A stretch of 64,000 nucleotides of DNA from an uncultured Desulfosarcinaceae bacterium (GTDB taxonomy: Bacteria > Desulfobacterota > Desulfobacteria > Desulfobacterales > JAFDCJ01): positions 40,079 to 104,078 of the forward strand of contig CAZGNV010000004.1 of assembly GCA_964527835.1 (NCBI GenBank), given 5' to 3'. Below are positions 46,617-52,909 of the stretch, one piece after another. The position numbers were made by a program, and so were the translations under genes. The notes under the pieces are model-generated. The model had not been told where the DNA came from and did no database searches. It worked only from the letters and a program-made list of their open reading frames with translations. Position 1 is the first letter of the stretch. Every line of letters starts with the position of its first letter.

Positions 46617-47450
46617 ATGCATTTCAAAGTTACAACCCTGTCCGAAAACAACATTGGCCCCTCCAGCCAGGGCTTGATCGCAGAGCACGGCCTTGCGTTT
46701 TACATTGAGGCTGCAGATCGACGTATTCTGTTTGATACCGGGCAGAATCTCGTTATCGCCAATAATGCCGAAGTCCTGGGCATTGATCTTGTCCGTATCG
46801 ATACGGTGGTCTTAAGCCATGGCCATTACGATCACACCAGCGGCATTAAAACCCTTTTGAAGTGCAACACGGGTTTTACGCTTTATGCCCATCCGGATGT
46901 ATTTGACGCCAAACTAAGGGAGAAAGGCGATGATTACAAATATATCGGTATACCCGTTGACCGAAAGGAGCTGGAACAAAAGGGCATAAAAATCCAGCTC
47001 GACAGGGATCCCGTCTCCATAGCCCCCGGCATCACCACCACCGGAGAAATACCGCTTGATAATGATTTTGAAAAGGTGGGGTCAATTTTCTATCTTAAAA
47101 AAGGGGAGGATTATCCGGCCGATACCATGGTTGACGACCGGGCGATGATCCTGGATACGGACCAAGGAGTGGTGGTGCTGCTGGGCTGCACGCACCGGGG
47201 GGTGATCAACACCTTGGATCACGTTACCCAAATTAGCGGCCGCAACACGATCCATGCCATCATGGGCGGTCTGCACCTGGGCAACGCCTCAGGCGAGAAG
47301 CTGGCCACCGTAATCGAACACCTGCATGCCTTCGGGCTGGAAAAAATAGGCGTCGGGCACTGCACCGGCTACAAGGCCTTTGCGGCCCTTGCCAGTGAAT
47401 TCAAAGACAAGGTTTTTCTCAACGTGGTTGGCAATGTGATGCAATTTTAA
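46617..47450 (+). CDS. Metallo-beta-lactamase-fold hydrolase
   Basis: EHGLAF, LFDTG, SHGHYDHTSG, GCTHRG, GGLHL, HCTG. Confidence 0.88.
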   Translation: MHFKVTTLSENNIGPSSQGLIAEHGLAFYIEAADRRILFDTGQNLVIANNAEVLGIDLVRIDTVVLSHGHYDHTSGIKTLLKCNTGFTLYAHPDVFDAKLREKGDDYKYIGIPVDRKELEQKGIKIQLDRDPVSIAPGITTTGEIPLDNDFEKVGSIFYLKKGEDYPADTMVDDRAMILDTDQGVVVLLGCTHRGVINTLDHVTQISGRNTIHAIMGGLHLGNASGEKLATVIEHLHAFGLEKIGVGHCTGYKAFAALASEFKDKVFLNVVGNVMQF

Positions 47451-47629
47451 GATTGTGATCGTCTGGATCGTTTTGATGGTTTAGATCCTCCGCTTCTTCT
47501 AAGCCTTACCGGATCAAGCCAGAATTTTGCAACCTTATCATCATGTTCAACATGTATGTGCAGCGGCTCATCTCTATCATCGGCATAAAAGAAAAACCGA
47601 TATGGCCCAATTCTCATCACTGTTGGCAT
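47447..47629 (-). pseudogene. DUF4160-family protein, C-terminally truncated, no DUF2442 partner
   Basis: MPTV..GPYRFFFY..EPLHIHV..AKFWL; loses family-like sequence after SGG. Confidence 0.7.
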
Positions 47630-47648
47630 TGGTTAATTTTTCATTAAT

Positions 47649-47738
47649 AGTTATCGTGGCATGGTGGAATCATTGTGGGGCCCGAACCCGCATTACTGGA
47701 TTACCCCGGCATCTGAGCTGCAACGGAAATACCAAACT
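47649..47738. other. Intergenic segment with AGTT..AACT ends, possible degenerate recombination site
   Basis: Occupies most of the SLATT-DUF4160 gap; only short terminal complementarity. Confidence 0.25.
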
Positions 47739-47741
47739 CGT

Positions 47742-48251
47742 TCAATCGTCCTGGACTTGGGGCGCGCCAACCTGTTTTGCTGCTTGTCGGTGAATTCTGG
47801 TGGGCACAATAGGTGCTTCGCGTTCAATTTCCGCCCAGCGATCCCCTATTGCTTGCATGACCTGAGCTCGGGTTTCGCCACCGTGTGGACTGGTGTCAAG
47901 CGCTCGCTCTAAATCGCGCCGCAGCGCTCCGAAAGCAATGCTTGCAATGTTGTGCTTTTCGGCGAGAACTCCGTAATTGAGAAAAGTCTGAAGTGCGGCC
48001 AATACCGCTGCAAGACCCGACATCAGACCGGCGATGATTTTCCAAGTATCCGAGATGGCCTGTTCTGAAATCGTCGCGAAGATGCTAGTTCCAACGATGG
48101 TGGTGAGTATGACGACAGGCACGCCGAGCAGGCGCCCACGCCGCCGGAAGTTGGCAGCCGCCTTTGCGTGAGCGATATGCCACAATCTGATACCACGGTG
48201 CCACTGATTGAAGAGATCCGGCTTCCCGCAAGATTGTTCGTTATTCGTCAT
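47742..48251 (-). CDS. SLATT-domain 2TM effector
   Basis: H..AA..F..R..LLGVPVVILTTIVGTSIFA and GL..GLAAVLAALQTFLNY..AEKH; ATG 48251 overlaps the upstream stop (ATGA). Confidence 0.82.
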   Translation of the reverse strand: MTNNEQSCGKPDLFNQWHRGIRLWHIAHAKAAANFRRRGRLLGVPVVILTTIVGTSIFATISEQAISDTWKIIAGLMSGLAAVLAALQTFLNYGVLAEKHNIASIAFGALRRDLERALDTSPHGGETRAQVMQAIGDRWAEIEREAPIVPTRIHRQAAKQVGAPQVQDD

Positions 48252-50245
48252 CGTTTTACCTTTGCCTCCAAATGCCTTAAAAAGGATGTTATCGGCGATT
48301 CCGATCGGTTCTGTTGAATGCAATAGCGAATCAGTGCTTCCATAACCTGCCGAACCGTCGCCAGCAAAGACTCCAAATCGGAATCATTGTCTTTCCCATT
48401 CCACCGGCCGTGTGCTACAGTGTTGCGGAACGCGCGGCCTCGTTCGCGAAACCACCCGGACTCGGCGGCTTCGGTTACCTGGGCAACGAGATCCTCGAGC
48501 TGGACGGCGGCGCGCAGGGGGCGGAATCTGCCGAGAATTTCCTCCAGGACCGCAAAAAGCATTCCGGCACTTGCCTTGCCCGGAAAAAAACGGCTGGGGT
48601 GGGCCCTCAAGAATTCACCAATCAGTTCGTCAAGCTGGCCGTCGGAATGGTCCGCGGCGCATTGGGCCAGCAGCGCAGCCAAAGCTTCGATTCGTTCCAG
48701 GTCGTTTTGGGAGATGCGTTCATCAGGTTCATGGACCATTGTTTTCAGAATCGACTGACGAAAAATCGTCGGTATCCTGTACCGCACCATTCCTTCGTAT
48801 ATATACCAACCCAACAGCTCAGGATCAATGAACTTCGTAAAGCCGGCAAGGCGCAATACGGCAATCGCCTGACGGCGTCGCCGCTTTAAATCGGCCAGGT
48901 CGTGGCGGCCCTGGTCAAAGAGCCCAATGCACCCAACCGGCTGGACCAATTGGGTCTCGAGCGCCCCTTTGACCCGCAGTTCACCAATGAAATCTCTTTT
49001 GATGTCTCTTTCTTCCAACTCTACGAGTTCAACCGCATTTAACGGTACGATGGCGAAACTTCCTTCTCGCACAGCTAGCGTTTCATTGCAGGCCAGACCA
49101 AGCAGGGGGGACCAACTTGCCACCACGCCCTCTTCCGCGTGCATGACGCCCCCAGATACGTACGAATATGTTATGGAAGCATAATTCGCATGACTGAGAC
49201 GGTTGCTTGTTCTAAGTCCCGGAGGAGAGTCCAGGTCGAGAGGGCTGGCTGGAATTGGATGTTCCGGTGCGTTGCCCGCATCGAGTTGCTCGCGAAGGGC
49301 AGGTAATGGAATACCCGCGAGTACACTGGGGCCAAAAGCAAGTATCGATGCAGCCAATAGCTGCTGCGCGCCGCAGCCGTGGGTCAGCGCCTCGGCAGCT
49401 GACAAGTCTTTCGGATGCGATCCATGGAGGGCCGCGCTGCGGGTGTCGTAGAGAAGCCGTGCGGTCCGGGCGATGGTGCTCGCGTCATATGTGGCGGACA
49501 GCAAAGTTGTAAGTCGATCCGCAAAGGTTTTCTTTAACTGAGACCTCACCTCTGGAAGCAACAACGCCTCGAGAGCGATCGTTGCAAGAACCAGTTGATC
49601 CCGTGGCAGCAAGCTCGGTTCAGCGCACAGCAATAGTGCGTTGATCGCACCTGAGAGTGTCTCGTTCCGGCCCGCCGCTTCCACAAAGTTCCAGATGCTC
49701 GATGCAAAATCAACCGAACTTGCGGGTAAAGGTGGACCACTGGCTTCTGGAAGCAGCAGCCATTCGTGGTCAGCGTCTCCCTGTATGCGGGCTAGTATTC
49801 CACTGGTTTCGCTAATTTGGAAGTAGTGATCATCGGGCACGCAGATTGTCATCGAAGAGCGTGGTGATGCCGGAGCCGCGGCCGGGGCGGCAAGCGTCAG
49901 GGCCGCCTGTGCCGTCCAGCAGAAAGTCTTCTGGAATTGGGTCAAAAACCCGAATCCCATCTGCTCGAATTCCTCGTCGAACCCGTAGGTGGGTTTCTTT
50001 AGCTCGATATTGTTTGGCTTCTCTGGTTGACCCGGAACCAAAAAGGGCCAGTCGACTTCGATTTCGATAAAGAAAAAAACCGGCGCAGTTTGATCATAGG
50101 CTTCCTGATGCTCTTCGAAGGCTCCGGCCGTTTGCGCGTTCCATGCTACAAACGGGAATCGCCACAAAGATCCAGGCCCGAGGGGGCAGACTTCCTCAGT
50201 GCTTCGAATCATGGGAATGTGCGAGTAGTAGTTGACTATGGCCAT
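48248..50245 (-). CDS. Tandem ApeA-like HEPN-HEPN protein
   Basis: ALEALL..LYDTRSAALHG and LFAVLEEIL..FRNTVAHG: two RxxxxH motifs, each after a helical HEPN-like core. Confidence 0.75.
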   Translation of the reverse strand: MAIVNYYSHIPMIRSTEEVCPLGPGSLWRFPFVAWNAQTAGAFEEHQEAYDQTAPVFFFIEIEVDWPFLVPGQPEKPNNIELKKPTYGFDEEFEQMGFGFLTQFQKTFCWTAQAALTLAAPAAAPASPRSSMTICVPDDHYFQISETSGILARIQGDADHEWLLLPEASGPPLPASSVDFASSIWNFVEAAGRNETLSGAINALLLCAEPSLLPRDQLVLATIALEALLLPEVRSQLKKTFADRLTTLLSATYDASTIARTARLLYDTRSAALHGSHPKDLSAAEALTHGCGAQQLLAASILAFGPSVLAGIPLPALREQLDAGNAPEHPIPASPLDLDSPPGLRTSNRLSHANYASITYSYVSGGVMHAEEGVVASWSPLLGLACNETLAVREGSFAIVPLNAVELVELEERDIKRDFIGELRVKGALETQLVQPVGCIGLFDQGRHDLADLKRRRRQAIAVLRLAGFTKFIDPELLGWYIYEGMVRYRIPTIFRQSILKTMVHEPDERISQNDLERIEALAALLAQCAADHSDGQLDELIGEFLRAHPSRFFPGKASAGMLFAVLEEILGRFRPLRAAVQLEDLVAQVTEAAESGWFRERGRAFRNTVAHGRWNGKDNDSDLESLLATVRQVMEALIRYCIQQNRSESPITSFLRHLEAKVKR

Positions 50246-50277
50246 AAAGTCCTATTCGTCGTCAGAGTTAATTGATT

Positions 50278-50371
50278 AAAGATAGGAATACAAAAGGCAT
50301 TCGTCGGCGAAGGTATGTCCTGTGGACCCAAGGCGTTGACGAAGCAAAATACATGTCGTATCCCTATCTTT
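50278..50371. repeat. 94-bp bulged hairpin upstream of the HEPN gene
   Basis: AAAGATAGGAATAC / GTATCCCTATCTTT (13/14) and inner TTCGTCGGCG / CGTTGACGAA. Confidence 0.75.
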
Positions 50372-50375
50372 TACT

Positions 50376-50400
50376 GGCTAACGGCACCGAGTTTGCTCGA
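50376..50400 (-). other. Possible right half of a disrupted attC site
   Basis: Minus strand ..ACTCGGTGCC-GTTAGCC resembles the R' end of the attC at 52618; no left half present. Confidence 0.35.
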
Positions 50401-50404
50401 TCCC

Positions 50405-50520
50405 CCAACCATTTATCCAGAGGAGGCCAAGCTCATAAATTTTTTCAACCAGCAACAAAGGTATTACTGAAAGGACAATCCAAACACAATCTAAAAATGT
50501 GGATTAGCATTTTTGCTGGT
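50405..50520 (+). mobile_element. Degenerate IS110-family 5' remnant (tentative)
   Basis: GGAGG RBS then INFFNQQQRYY-stop and frameshifted HNLKMWISIF, resembling the MxFYxxQHxYYCGIDLHxxxMYVCIL N-termini of IS110 transposases. Confidence 0.35.
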
Positions 50521-50533
50521 TACTGCTACTATG

Positions 50534-51202
50534 TCAGGCATCCCAGGTTTTTGGGTTTTCACTTTTTTCTGCAAAGGCGTCCCAGGGGCAGGCCTTTCGA
50601 CAGGGGGCGGGACAAGCGGAGCAGGGATCAAAGTCAACAACCCCCGTGCTGGGCAGCTCGGCGCTTGTCAGCATGACACGAAGGCGCAAGCGCGGCCCGT
50701 AGCGAGGCGTGACCAGCAGATTGTTTTCGCCGCTACACCCCAGTCCGGCCAATACGGCGGCATCTTTCATGTAAACCCCACCGCGTTCAATATGGTAGGG
50801 CAACTTAAAACAGCGAATTCCATGCTTTCTTTCCAGCCACCCGGCCATCCTGGCCACCACCTCCATGAGCAGGAGGTCGCCGGCAGAATAAGCGCTGGTG
50901 GCGCCGATTATCCACCAGTCCAACTCGGGCTTTGCCGGTGGATGGCTCACTGCGACCACTACGGCGGAGCGTGCATCGTCGGGCCATTTTACGATACCGC
51001 GCCGGCGGCCGTCCAGCGGCATGGTGCCCTCGCCTTCAAATGCGGGCAGCTTGGGGGAAATTACATAGGAAGGTGCATTCCGCAAATCCTTTAGGTTGAC
51101 CACCCCGGCCAGGTCTGCTCCGAATTCTTTGGTCTTGGCAATGATCAACCTGATGAGGTCTCGTTCTTTTACTATACGGGAATGGTGGTTTTGAGATGGC
51201 AT
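50534..51202 (-). CDS. Epoxyqueuosine-reductase-like Fe-S/B12 protein, C-terminally truncated
   Basis: FGADLAGV, KDAAVLAGLG, NNLLVTPRYGPRLRL, CSACPAPCRKACP; second Cys cluster absent. Confidence 0.72.
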   Translation of the reverse strand: MPSQNHHSRIVKERDLIRLIIAKTKEFGADLAGVVNLKDLRNAPSYVISPKLPAFEGEGTMPLDGRRRGIVKWPDDARSAVVVAVSHPPAKPELDWWIIGATSAYSAGDLLLMEVVARMAGWLERKHGIRCFKLPYHIERGGVYMKDAAVLAGLGCSGENNLLVTPRYGPRLRLRVMLTSAELPSTGVVDFDPCSACPAPCRKACPWDAFAEKSENPKTWDA

Positions 51203-51206
51203 CTGT

Positions 51207-51232
51207 GGAAGTGGTGTCAGGAAGTGGTGTCA
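51207..51232. repeat. 13-bp tandem direct repeat
   Basis: GGAAGTGGTGTCA twice, at the end of the transposase remnant. Confidence 0.85.
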
Positions 51233-51343
51233 CATCTTGATTTGTGATTTAACGTGTTGGTATTTTCTCTTGAACGGCTTGTCTTTGTTCAGTTTTTCCT
51301 TTACCACGCGTACTCGTTGACTTACAGCCGAATAGCTCAGTCC
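51230..51343 (-). pseudogene. C-terminal HTH remnant of a Y1 (REP-associated/IS200-like) transposase
   Basis: Manual translation GLSYSAVSQRVRVVKEKLNKDKPFKRKYQHVKSQIKM-stop, starting next to the attC core. Confidence 0.65.
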
Positions 51344-51412
51344 AATGAACGGCAAAGCTGTGCGGGGCAAACGGAACGCAGCGTAGTTTGCGTCCTAACG
51401 AGCGCATTAGCG
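51344..51412 (-). other. Degenerate integron attC site
   Basis: Minus strand CGCTAAT..GGACGCAAACTACGCTGCGTTCCGTTTGCCCC..GTTCATT; the cassette stop codon lies in the inverse core. Confidence 0.65.
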
Positions 51413-51808
51413 GTTAAATTCAGCCAGTAATTCAAGGGCTAGTTTCTCCATTTTATCCAGGCTTATATCAGCTTTATCCAGGAACTCTTTGTCATAATGT
51501 CCTGGATCTGACCAATGCTTGCCTTTAATCTGGCAGCGCTTAGCTAGCTTTTTAATACCAAGATCTTCAAGTGCGAAACCGAGACCTGTCCAAAGTAATG
51601 ATAAGTGCCTTTCGGTGTTGTGATCTCGATTTCCATTATCATTCAATTGCCGGATGTATACCGCGGTTTCTCGCGATGCTGTTACGACCTTCCTCAATGC
51701 TTGAATGGATTCGTGCTTTCTTTCTGTTTTTGCGCGACGAAGATTTAGTAACCATTTATAACCATGATTAAAAAGGTCTCCTAATATTTTTGTTGTTAGT
51801 GCTTCCAT
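51407..51808 (-). CDS. Hypothetical 133-aa integron cassette protein
   Basis: Single AT-rich ORF filling the space between two attC sites. Confidence 0.75.
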   Translation of the reverse strand: MEALTTKILGDLFNHGYKWLLNLRRAKTERKHESIQALRKVVTASRETAVYIRQLNDNGNRDHNTERHLSLLWTGLGFALEDLGIKKLAKRCQIKGKHWSDPGHYDKEFLDKADISLDKMEKLALELLAEFNR

Positions 51809-51818
51809 TTGTTTTTAC

Positions 51819-51924
51819 CGCTATCGTCGTGGGTAACCAGCGGGCCGGACGAAATTCAAGATAGCACAGCCTTTAACGAAAACCGCACAGTTTCTTTACG
51901 TCTGATTCACCCGCCTTGTTAGCG
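51819..51924 (-). other. Integron attC site
   Basis: Minus strand R'' CGCTAAC, 5-nt spacer, L'' GGGTGAAT ... L' GGTTACC, R' GATAGCG. Confidence 0.82.
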
Positions 51925-51947
51925 TCCTTGTTCAATTTTATGCAGCC

Positions 51948-52253
51948 TTAAGCAGCAAATGTTTCAACAACTGGATCAATTTTTCGCCATTCTTTCGATT
52001 TGTTTGCGGCCTGCCACAAATCATAATTTCTTTGAAGATTGATCCAAAATTCTGGGCTCGTGTCAAAAGCCCTCGATAGTTTTAAAGCCATCTCTGGGGT
52101 TACTGATGCCCTTTCGTTTATGATTTTTGACAACGTCTTCCTGGATATTCCAAGAATATTGGATAGTTCAGTAATCGTTATGGATAATGGCTCCAAATAG
52201 TCTTCCTTTATTATCTGACCAGGATGGGTTGGCTTTCTTTTCATGATATTCAT
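51948..52253 (-). CDS. higA: HigA-family HTH antitoxin
   Basis: HPGQIIKEDYL, VTPEMALKLSRAFDTSPEFWINLQ. Confidence 0.93.
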   Translation of the reverse strand: MNIMKRKPTHPGQIIKEDYLEPLSITITELSNILGISRKTLSKIINERASVTPEMALKLSRAFDTSPEFWINLQRNYDLWQAANKSKEWRKIDPVVETFAA

Positions 52254-52268
52254 AAGATTCTCCTTTAT

Positions 52269-52547
52269 TCAATGATAGTCGAGATAATCAACATCAAAGG
52301 CATGACCCTGTTCGAACCGAAATATAATTCTCCAGTTACCGGATACTGAAACTGCATGCATGCCTTCATATTGGCCACTCAATAAATGTAAATTTGAACC
52401 GGGATAATGCATGTCTCTCAATTCGGTTGCCGCCTGGAGCCTGTCCAATATTTTGCCAAGTTTATTAGCATGTTCCGGCTTTATTCCCCTTTTTGATCCT
52501 GTATAAAAATATTTCTCAAGGCCTTTATGTTTGAATGATTTAATCAT
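52269..52547 (-). CDS. higB: HigB/RelE-family toxin
   Basis: MIKSFKHKGLEKYF, LHLLSG, VSVSGNWRIIFRF, LDYH. Confidence 0.93.
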   Translation of the reverse strand: MIKSFKHKGLEKYFYTGSKRGIKPEHANKLGKILDRLQAATELRDMHYPGSNLHLLSGQYEGMHAVSVSGNWRIIFRFEQGHAFDVDYLDYH

Positions 52548-52556
52548 ATATCTAAT

Positions 52557-52575
52557 CGTAACCACTTAGGTTACG
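52557..52575. promoter_or_regulatory. higBA operator palindrome
   Basis: CGTAACC-N5-GGTTACG just upstream of higB. Confidence 0.7.
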
Positions 52576-52617
52576 AATTGCAATAAAAAAAGAGACGACA
52601 CCGCCTTCTATATGTGG

Positions 52618-52690
52618 CGCTAACGGCCGAGCTCACTTGCCGCTGTGGAGCGCAAGCGAAACAGCGGTCAGGTGCAGCGGCTTGATACTA
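52618..52690 (-). other. Integron attC site (R'' damaged)
   Basis: Minus strand TAGTATC-AAGCC-GCTGCACCTGACCGCTG..CAGCGGCAAGTGAGCTCGGCC-GTTAGCG. Confidence 0.82.
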
Positions 52691-52909
52691 GTTATGGCCT
52701 TCCCTCAGATGAAAGGTTAAAATGGAAATACCTTTAACTCCAAAACCTTTCACCCAAAGGAGGCCAACTTATGTTAAAGCAATTCACAGAAAAGATTTTT
52801 CTTGCTGAGGAGAAAAATAAAGGGCGCTTTTCCTTATTAAAGTCCCCTGAGATCTTATGGAAGTCCAGCTTTTGCCGGCGGCCTAGCCGGAACTTTATTT
52901 TAGCCCTCC

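Follow-up and report, generated by a model that had tools for sequence, protein, structure and literature searches.

A small, probably decaying array of integron cassettes without an integrase gene in a Desulfobacterales-like genome

Introduction

Do the attC-like sites around a higBA toxin-antitoxin (TA) pair mark a working integron array, the remains of one, or something else altogether? The question is raised by positions 51344-52690 of a 64-kb stretch (hereafter the window) of contig CAZGNV010000004.1, which is about 136 kb long. Working from the letters alone, an original prediction had described three attC sites on the minus strand, matched cassette ends and the lack of an intI gene, and had read the segment as a CALIN (a cluster of attC sites that has no integron-integrase). 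The quoted sequences and coordinates of the three sites are as described, and the label is correct: two attC sites pass a covariance model, identical cassette junctions occur in other arrays, including intI-linked ones, and no intI lies nearby. We conclude that the locus is very probably a small fossilising CALIN, consisting of two genuine integron cassettes, higBA and an open reading frame of 133 codons (ORF133), without an integrase and with lesions in its sites. It is a new instance of CALIN, not a new kind. Loci used for comparison are cited by number (L027, L046 and so on).

Results and Discussion

Layout of the array

Read along the minus strand from 52898 to 51230, the locus consists of about 200 nt without an open reading frame (ORF), attC1, higB, higA, attC2, ORF133, attC3 and a C-terminal gene remnant of 46 amino acids (aa). 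The features of the array are as follows.

52618..52697, minus strand: attC1, with R'' CCATAAC (52697-52691), an extra TAGTATC, spacer AAGCC, stem, spacer TCGGCC and R' GTTAGCG (52624-52618)
51825..52623, minus strand: higBA cassette, 799 bp, from TTAGCG to the G of the R' of attC2
52556..52576, no strand assigned: palindrome TCGTAACC-N5-GGTTACGA, just upstream of higB, read from the sequence
52269..52547, minus strand: higB, RelE-like toxin, 92 aa from ATG (Pfam HigB-like_toxin, E 9.8e-20)
51948..52253, minus strand: higA, helix-turn-helix (HTH) antitoxin, 101 aa (Pfam HTH_3, E 1.4e-11; NCBIfam TIGR02607 antidote_HigA, E 1.5e-34)
51819..51924, minus strand: attC2, with R'' CGCTAAC (51924-51918), spacer AAGGCG, spacer CACGAC and R' GATAGCG (51825-51819)
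51350..51824, minus strand: ORF133 cassette, 475 bp, with a 5' junction matching those in L087 and L089
51407..51808, minus strand: ORF133, conserved 133-aa all-helical protein
51344..51412, minus strand: attC3, decayed, with R'' CGCTAAT (51412-51406) and R' GTTCATT (51350-51344)

The GC content is 38-46% in 51230-52898, compared with 55-63% around it. The array forms the AT-rich end of a 5.4-kb insert, the rest of which has a GC content of about 55%.

Detection of attC sites by covariance models

Covariance models of attC were built in-house from independently credible sites. The model R2 was trained on 14 diverse sites, which were taken from class 1 cassettes (plasmids), a betaproteobacterial Methylophilaceae-type integron (L076, the attC family of L027) and a Geobacteraceae array, and both strands of the entire 64 kb were then scanned with it at full sensitivity. 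The top two matches in the window were attC1 (52697-52618; 20.6 bits, E 0.0032) and attC2 (51924-51819; 15.1 bits, E 0.12), 693 bp apart on the minus strand and flanking higBA, and all other matches scored at most 9.4 bits. Two of the three sites in the original prediction were thereby found by the model as its best matches in 64 kb, whereas attC3 (51412-51344) fell below the threshold, with no R2 match at E<=10, and is recognisable only as a decayed homolog of the attC that follows ORF133 in L087. With this surrogate model, at least two attC sites at E<=1 lie within 4 kb, which is the IntegronFinder-type definition of a CALIN. No decayed attC was found by R2 in the rest of the 5.4-kb insert. 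An Rfam scan of the window gave no match, and no attC family was returned by Rfam.

The performance of R2 was examined on control loci. All 19 located sites of the intI-linked array L046, none of which was in the training set, scored 12-38 bits. In 1.32 Mb of other loci, scanned with default filters, all matches at E<=1 (at least 17.7 bits) were on the plus strand and fell in seven loci; L027, L046, L073 and L076 hold attC arrays, L041, L044 and L061 gave one match each, and the other 72 loci gave none. The identity of attC1 is secure. That of attC2 is marginal on score alone, and its position, strand and homology point to a genuine site.

Structure and lesions of the attC sites

The stem of attC1 is GCT-G-CACCTG-A-CCGCTGT / ACAGCGG-CAAGTG-AGC. 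Its bottom strand forms a hairpin with a 16-bp stem, from which T and C protrude as single-base bulges at the canonical spacing (6 bp apart, 3 bp from the base), and folds at -15.9 kcal/mol, compared with -13.4 kcal/mol for the top strand. The R'' placed by the model begins 7 nt upstream of the start given earlier (52690). The sites upstream of higBA in L095 (1353-1437) and L096 (456-527) are members of the attC family that includes attC1; the basal 3-bp stem of attC1, GCT/AGC, differs from the GGT/ACC of these two sites by a compensatory change. The sites in L095 and L096 have the usual 5-nt spacer after AAC, whereas attC1 and its counterpart in L086 carry the extra TAGTATC, and the R''-side spacer of attC1 is 12 nt. 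TAGTATC was also considered as a variant R'' and was rejected, being an insertion relative to L095 and L096.

The other two sites carry lesions in their R boxes. In attC2, whose stem can be drawn as GGT-G-AATCAG-A-CG ... CG-CTGGTT-ACC, the GTT of R' is changed to GAT, a T-to-A substitution at the crossover triplet. In attC3, the AAC of R'' is changed to AAT, 3 nt of the spacer are deleted and the stem has extra mismatches; the TAA stop codon of ORF133 lies inside the R'' CGCTAAT. This site aligns base for base, with additional stem mismatches, to the attC after ORF133 in L087, which R2 scores at 16.8 bits, and the L089 counterpart (16.0 bits) has the same R'' (CCGCTAAC) and layout; attC3 itself was undetected. 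Relative to the attC consensus (R'' RYYYAAC / R' GTTRRRY), both the AAC and the GTT triplets are kept in one of the three sites, attC1. The bottom-strand folding with extrahelical bases that had been proposed as a check was seen for attC1, with its two bulges; the canonical fold of attC2 is disfavoured, and attC3, with mismatched stems, has no convincing fold. Unconstrained fold z-scores of the three sites (-1.1, +1.8 and +0.95) were uninformative.

The higBA cassette

As the original prediction stated, the start of the higBA cassette, TTAGCG, is an exact complement of its own R'' CGCTAAC. As in the window, the higBA cassettes of L095 and L096 begin with G|TTAGCGC and have GCGCTAAC at their end, and the pair lies exactly between two attCs in L095, L096 and L139. 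The toxin gene precedes the antitoxin gene with 15 nt between them, the gene order of HigBA type II TA systems. In 80 metagenomic loci with HigB relatives (59-75% identity), R2 gave 50 attC matches, 49 of them on the higB strand. IntI homologs lie upstream in L139 (51% identity to IntI1) and L101 (46%). The palindrome upstream of higB, TGTAACC-N5-GGTTACA, is kept in L095, L096, L102, L108 and L139, and the window palindrome is probably the HigA operator in the cassette's own promoter region.

The ORF133 cassette

ORF133 has 182 homologs, with 59-95% identity among the 120 listed. It had no match in Pfam, NCBIfam or PADLOC. An AlphaFold2 model (pLDDT, predicted local distance difference test, 75.6) shows a helical bundle, and comparison with the PDB gave nothing significant by sequence search or by Foldseek fold search.

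The ends of this cassette read ATAGCGG and CCGCTAA with the stop codon in R'', as described before; they are complementary at six of seven positions, short of an exact match. The homologs in L087 and L089 have the exact end pair TTAGCGG / CCGCTAAC; their 5' junction reads ...G|TTAGCGGTAA...ATG, and CCGCTAAC stands at the stop codon. The window cassette has GATAGCGG at the 5' junction and CCGCTAAT at the 3' end, with a spacer 3 nt shorter than that of L087. The DNA upstream of the 5' junction is unrelated in every context compared (window, L087 and L089). In L086, the R' position is occupied by G-TAGCGG, with one T missing, and the R'' position by CTAAT.

The ORF133 homologs fell into 79 genome loci, six of which have full-length IntI homologs with 43-55% identity to IntI1. 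Three of the IntI-bearing loci have the regular attC arrays of canonical integrons, and there the first bases of each cassette are the exact complement of its own R''; this exact complementarity validates the use of matched ends to recognise cassettes. ORF133 is the first cassette beside the IntI homolog in L046, and it lies in or beside attC arrays in L027, L076 and L073. Cassettes with the same boundaries were found in other contigs, some of them next to IntI homologs, and relative to their sites the window sites are all lesioned. The recurrence of these boundaries in other arrays, including the intI-linked L139 and L101 for higBA and L046 for ORF133, indicates that the two units are genuine cassettes.

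Several ORF133 loci showed other arrangements. The closest homolog (L086, 962-1660), with 95% identity across 93% of the query, is part of a 232-aa fusion protein whose last 100 or so residues are unrelated. A Geobacteraceae contig from a metagenome-assembled genome (MAG) (L073, 1-20396) contains about 35 co-oriented small ORFs and more than 25 attCs found by R2, with ORF133 inside the array; it has no IntI homolog across 20 kb, and two readings fit, a large CALIN and the distal part of a chromosomal integron. In L058 (167-2135), L068 (157-2122) and L051 (4241-6385), an ORF133 homolog adjoins the 3' end of an intI homolog outside the cassette array; in L058 and L068 it lies downstream on the same strand, and in L051 the two genes are convergent. 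A second integrase-less mini-array, found in L087 (978-3279) and L088, is composed of a different higBA, a 215-aa gene and ORF133 (88% identity) and lies between unrelated chromosomal genes (Dabb, BATS); its higBA has about 40% identity, as estimated by reading the two sequences.

Search for an integrase gene

A tblastn search of the 64-kb window with IntI1 gave no match at E<=10, in agreement with the claim that the window has no intI. The query was checked to be 100% identical to annotated IntI1, and it did detect IntI homologs, at 43-55% identity, in other loci. No intI therefore occurs within 11 kb of the array on one side or within 51 kb on the other.

The insert and its flanks

The array is contained in an insert whose features, with those at its borders, are as follows.

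47466..52898, minus strand: strain-specific insert with the array, all genes on the minus strand; L174 has 24 bp instead
52698..52898, minus strand: non-coding stretch between the amidohydrolase stop codon and attC1, without a minus-strand ORF of at least 40 aa
51233..51349, minus strand: C-terminal remnant of an HTH gene, 46 aa, fused directly to the R' of attC3
47742-50245, minus strand: gene for a SLATT_4 two-transmembrane (2TM) effector and a 665-aa gene, overlapping by 76 nt
47449-47617, minus strand: fragment of a DUF4160 gene (Pfam E 2.2e-10, profile positions 2-44 of 65)

Judged by the named homologs of the flanking amidohydrolase, the host is similar to Desulfobacterales MAGs. Look-ups of four proteins of the window by exact sequence gave no match on record. 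The closest relative, L174, is a Desulfobacterales-like metagenome contig with a 92% identical amidohydrolase and 88% nucleotide identity overall, and it is collinear with the window on both sides of the insert by blastn synteny. The more distant relatives L175 and L177 have different DNA after the amidohydrolase gene and therefore do not help to define the ancestral site.

Besides the array, the insert contains the HTH remnant, a 222-aa gene related to QueG and reductive dehalogenase (RDH) genes, the 665-aa gene, the SLATT_4 gene and the truncated DUF4160 gene. These accessory fragments, and the truncated genes at both ends, suggest that the insert is a patchwork rather than one clean mobile element. 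The HTH remnant is 73% identical to the C-terminus of P0241, a protein with a weak Bac_DnaA_C match, and the homology begins at the G-L codons right after GTTCATT; the search with the remnant returned a single 94-aa homolog. The SLATT_4 2TM effector has 193 aa (NCBIfam E 1.7e-29; PADLOC 2TM effector E 2.4e-12), the 665-aa gene had no family match, and the two may form a defence-like module. The DUF4160 gene is cut at 47466, which is the right junction of the insert, and reads on into the conserved flank. The non-coding stretch at 52698..52898 may be the body of an ORF-less cassette; the similarity of L086 to this region covers the attC and about 15 nt directly upstream only, and the remainder is unlike.

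Three repeats were also observed in the insert. A GC-rich hairpin, CCGGCGGCCTAGCCGG, followed by a T-rich tail at 52875-52890 on the plus strand, lies just inside the left end and resembles a terminator for transcription antisense to the array. A perfect 13-nt tandem duplication of GGAAGTGGTGTCA, in two copies at 51207-51232, follows the stop codon of the HTH remnant and precedes the start of the 222-aa gene. At 50447-50521, in the spacer that separates this gene from the 665-aa gene, AACCAGCAACAAAGGTA / TAGCATTTTTGCTGGTT form an imperfect inverted repeat of 17 nt; on the minus strand its arms open with AAC and close with GTT, and R2 made no attC call there.

Origin of the array

The empty site of L174 (7124-7147) is a 24-bp segment containing GAAGTTAGCGTC, with AAG|TTAGCG. 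It has the same GTTAGCG as the R' of attC1 and is the complement of the GACGCTAAC of attC2. This GTTAGCG could be a chance occurrence, an attG-type target or an excision scar. In the window, the left junction of the insert reads AAAG|TTCCGG, and the right junction is without the expected TTAGCGTCTGCGC.

One explanation of these junctions is that an integrase delivered the cassettes into an intergenic attG and that attC3 was later joined to the interior of the HTH gene by an attC-by-secondary-site event, the array never having been part of a resident integron. The G|TT junctions in L174 and at the left end of the insert are in line with this history, as is the HTH homology that starts immediately after the G|TTCATT of attC3, just as such an event would leave it, and the same origin has been proposed for small two-cassette CALINs (10.1101/2022.09.11.507474). 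However, the expected TTAGCGTCTGCGC is missing, the patchwork insert has a truncated gene at each end (the HTH remnant and, cut at 47466, the DUF4160 gene), the site is shared by no second relative, and a 7-mer would turn up in a 50-bp spacer by chance at roughly 0.5-3%. We regard this complete history as rather unlikely. The array may have been seeded by attC-by-attG recombination at a convergent intergenic site bearing GTTAGCG; an attG-type insertion is compatible with the data but not demonstrated, because the right junction lacks the expected target half. Loss of a resident integrase and insertion in trans may each account for the array.

State of the array

Since lesions in an R box or a spacer are present at all three sites, the locus is better described as a decaying remnant than as an active array. 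Under the reading as a fossilising CALIN, both cassettes would originally have been captured by an integrase that recombined at the G|TT of folded bottom-strand attC hairpins. The array would now stand at one end of a 5.4-kb accessory patchwork in a Desulfobacterales-like chromosome, with no integrase in reach. The 7-nt insertion in attC1, the change of GTT to GAT in attC2 and the change of AAC to AAT with the 3-nt deletion in attC3 would leave the cassettes largely or wholly immobile, probably locking them in place. The higBA cassette, with its own operator and promoter region, would keep the segment from being lost, and TA-based stabilisation by higBA is the role we infer for it.

Several observations weigh against this reading. 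R2 is a surrogate, distinct from the curated model of IntegronFinder, and its E-values are rough. With 15.1 bits, attC2 barely exceeds a noise level that once reached 14.2 bits; its attC-type fold has only -1.1 kcal/mol, compared with -8.3 kcal/mol for the minimum free energy structure, so that the canonical fold is disfavoured, and attC2 and attC3 are predicted to fold no better than shuffled sequence. Another model, R1, trained on two attC families from three intI-linked arrays, gave no match at any of the three sites. At E of about 1 or better, R1 recovered seven class 1 attCs and missed the dfrA5 attC; it was judged too family-specific and was therefore replaced by R2. The rest of the genome, beyond the 64-kb window searched, may encode an IntI. 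The GAT of attC2 may keep some activity, because IntI1 accepts GWT at genomic attG sites (10.1101/2022.09.11.507474).

Some of these points would also suit an array that is still active, its cassettes being excised and reshuffled in trans by an IntI encoded elsewhere. The hairpin of attC1 is well formed, with two bulges and both triplets (AAC and GTT), a GWT triplet is accepted at attG sites as cited above, genomes encoding IntI account for about half of CALINs (PMC4889954), and the window covers part of the contig. Nevertheless, no site agrees with its canonical homologs in both the crossover triplet and the spacer, attC3 escapes the model although its homologs are recognised, and excision of either cassette would require the GAT of attC2 or the broken R box of attC3. 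Continued activity is thus improbable.

A TA islet between unrelated GC-rich palindromes, such as terminators or repetitive extragenic palindrome (REP)-like elements, would fit the lack of an Rfam match in the window, the unremarkable fold z-scores and the RAYT-like HTH remnant and 13-nt tandem repeat beside the array, but this reading is scarcely credible and was rejected, being contradicted by model matches at exactly the predicted places and strand, by cassette junctions identical to those of homologs in intI-linked arrays, and by a loop motif and stem layout that the sites have in common with the blaVIM-2 attC and Geobacteraceae attCs.

The locus, most probably a fossilising CALIN, can be read base by base against intact homologs and illustrates the decay of attC sites that an integrase no longer reaches. 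A broader idea is that the R-box and spacer lesions, present at all three window sites and similar in L086, are a recurrent, selected route by which cassettes become fixed as chromosomal genes, with integrase-less lineages keeping arrays with broken R boxes; we consider this idea doubtful. The kind of element, the TA cargo and the small size are all well described, and the locus accordingly opens no new question.

Comparison with known systems

TA cassettes stabilise integron arrays, and higBA, relBE and parDE cassettes are found in Vibrio superintegrons. The window cassette resembles these in being a two-gene TA unit that appears to bring its own promoter and operator into an otherwise promoterless array, with a presumed stabilising effect. 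Close HigB relatives lie between attCs in the intI-linked arrays L139 and L101, as TA cassettes of chromosomal integrons do. Unlike the Vibrio cassettes, the window TA pair belongs to an integrase-less remnant of just two cassettes, and the genome is Desulfobacterales-like.

Class 1 attCs (blaVIM-2, aadA-type and aacA4) were read from the plasmid loci L090-L093. The window sites share their layout, in which R'' is followed by a 5-6 nt spacer, 3 bp and a bulge, 6 bp and another bulge, the stem and, before R', a 6-nt spacer. In the blaVIM-2 attC, the first bulge of the top strand is likewise G, and the loop is of the CGCTGCGCTCC type. The window sites differ from class 1 attCs in the 12-nt spacer of attC1, the GAT of attC2 and the AAT and deletion of attC3.

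One survey counted 1362 CALINs with two cassettes among 2961 and named attG insertion as one proposed origin (10.1101/2022.09.11.507474). The array is like the small CALINs and SALINs (single attC sites lacking integron-integrases) ascribed there to attG insertion in being small, intergenic and without an integrase, with G|TT-type junctions and with attC3 joined to a gene interior. It is unlike them in that the expected duplicated target halves are missing in the window.

CALINs as a class, whose definition is two or more attC sites and no integrase, are abundant; the majority are small, and most have no intI pseudogene nearby (PMC4889954). The window differs from those of that study in that two of its three sites pass, with an in-house model, that all three are lesioned relative to close homologs and that the array stands inside a larger patchwork insert. 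It agrees with them in having at least two same-strand attCs within 4 kb, short co-oriented cassettes, no nearby intI and cassettes without database annotation. CALINs have been proposed as a step between the acquisition and the stabilisation of genes (PMC4889954), and this locus, a documented case of cassettes stranded in a Desulfobacterales-like chromosome, may serve as an example of that step.

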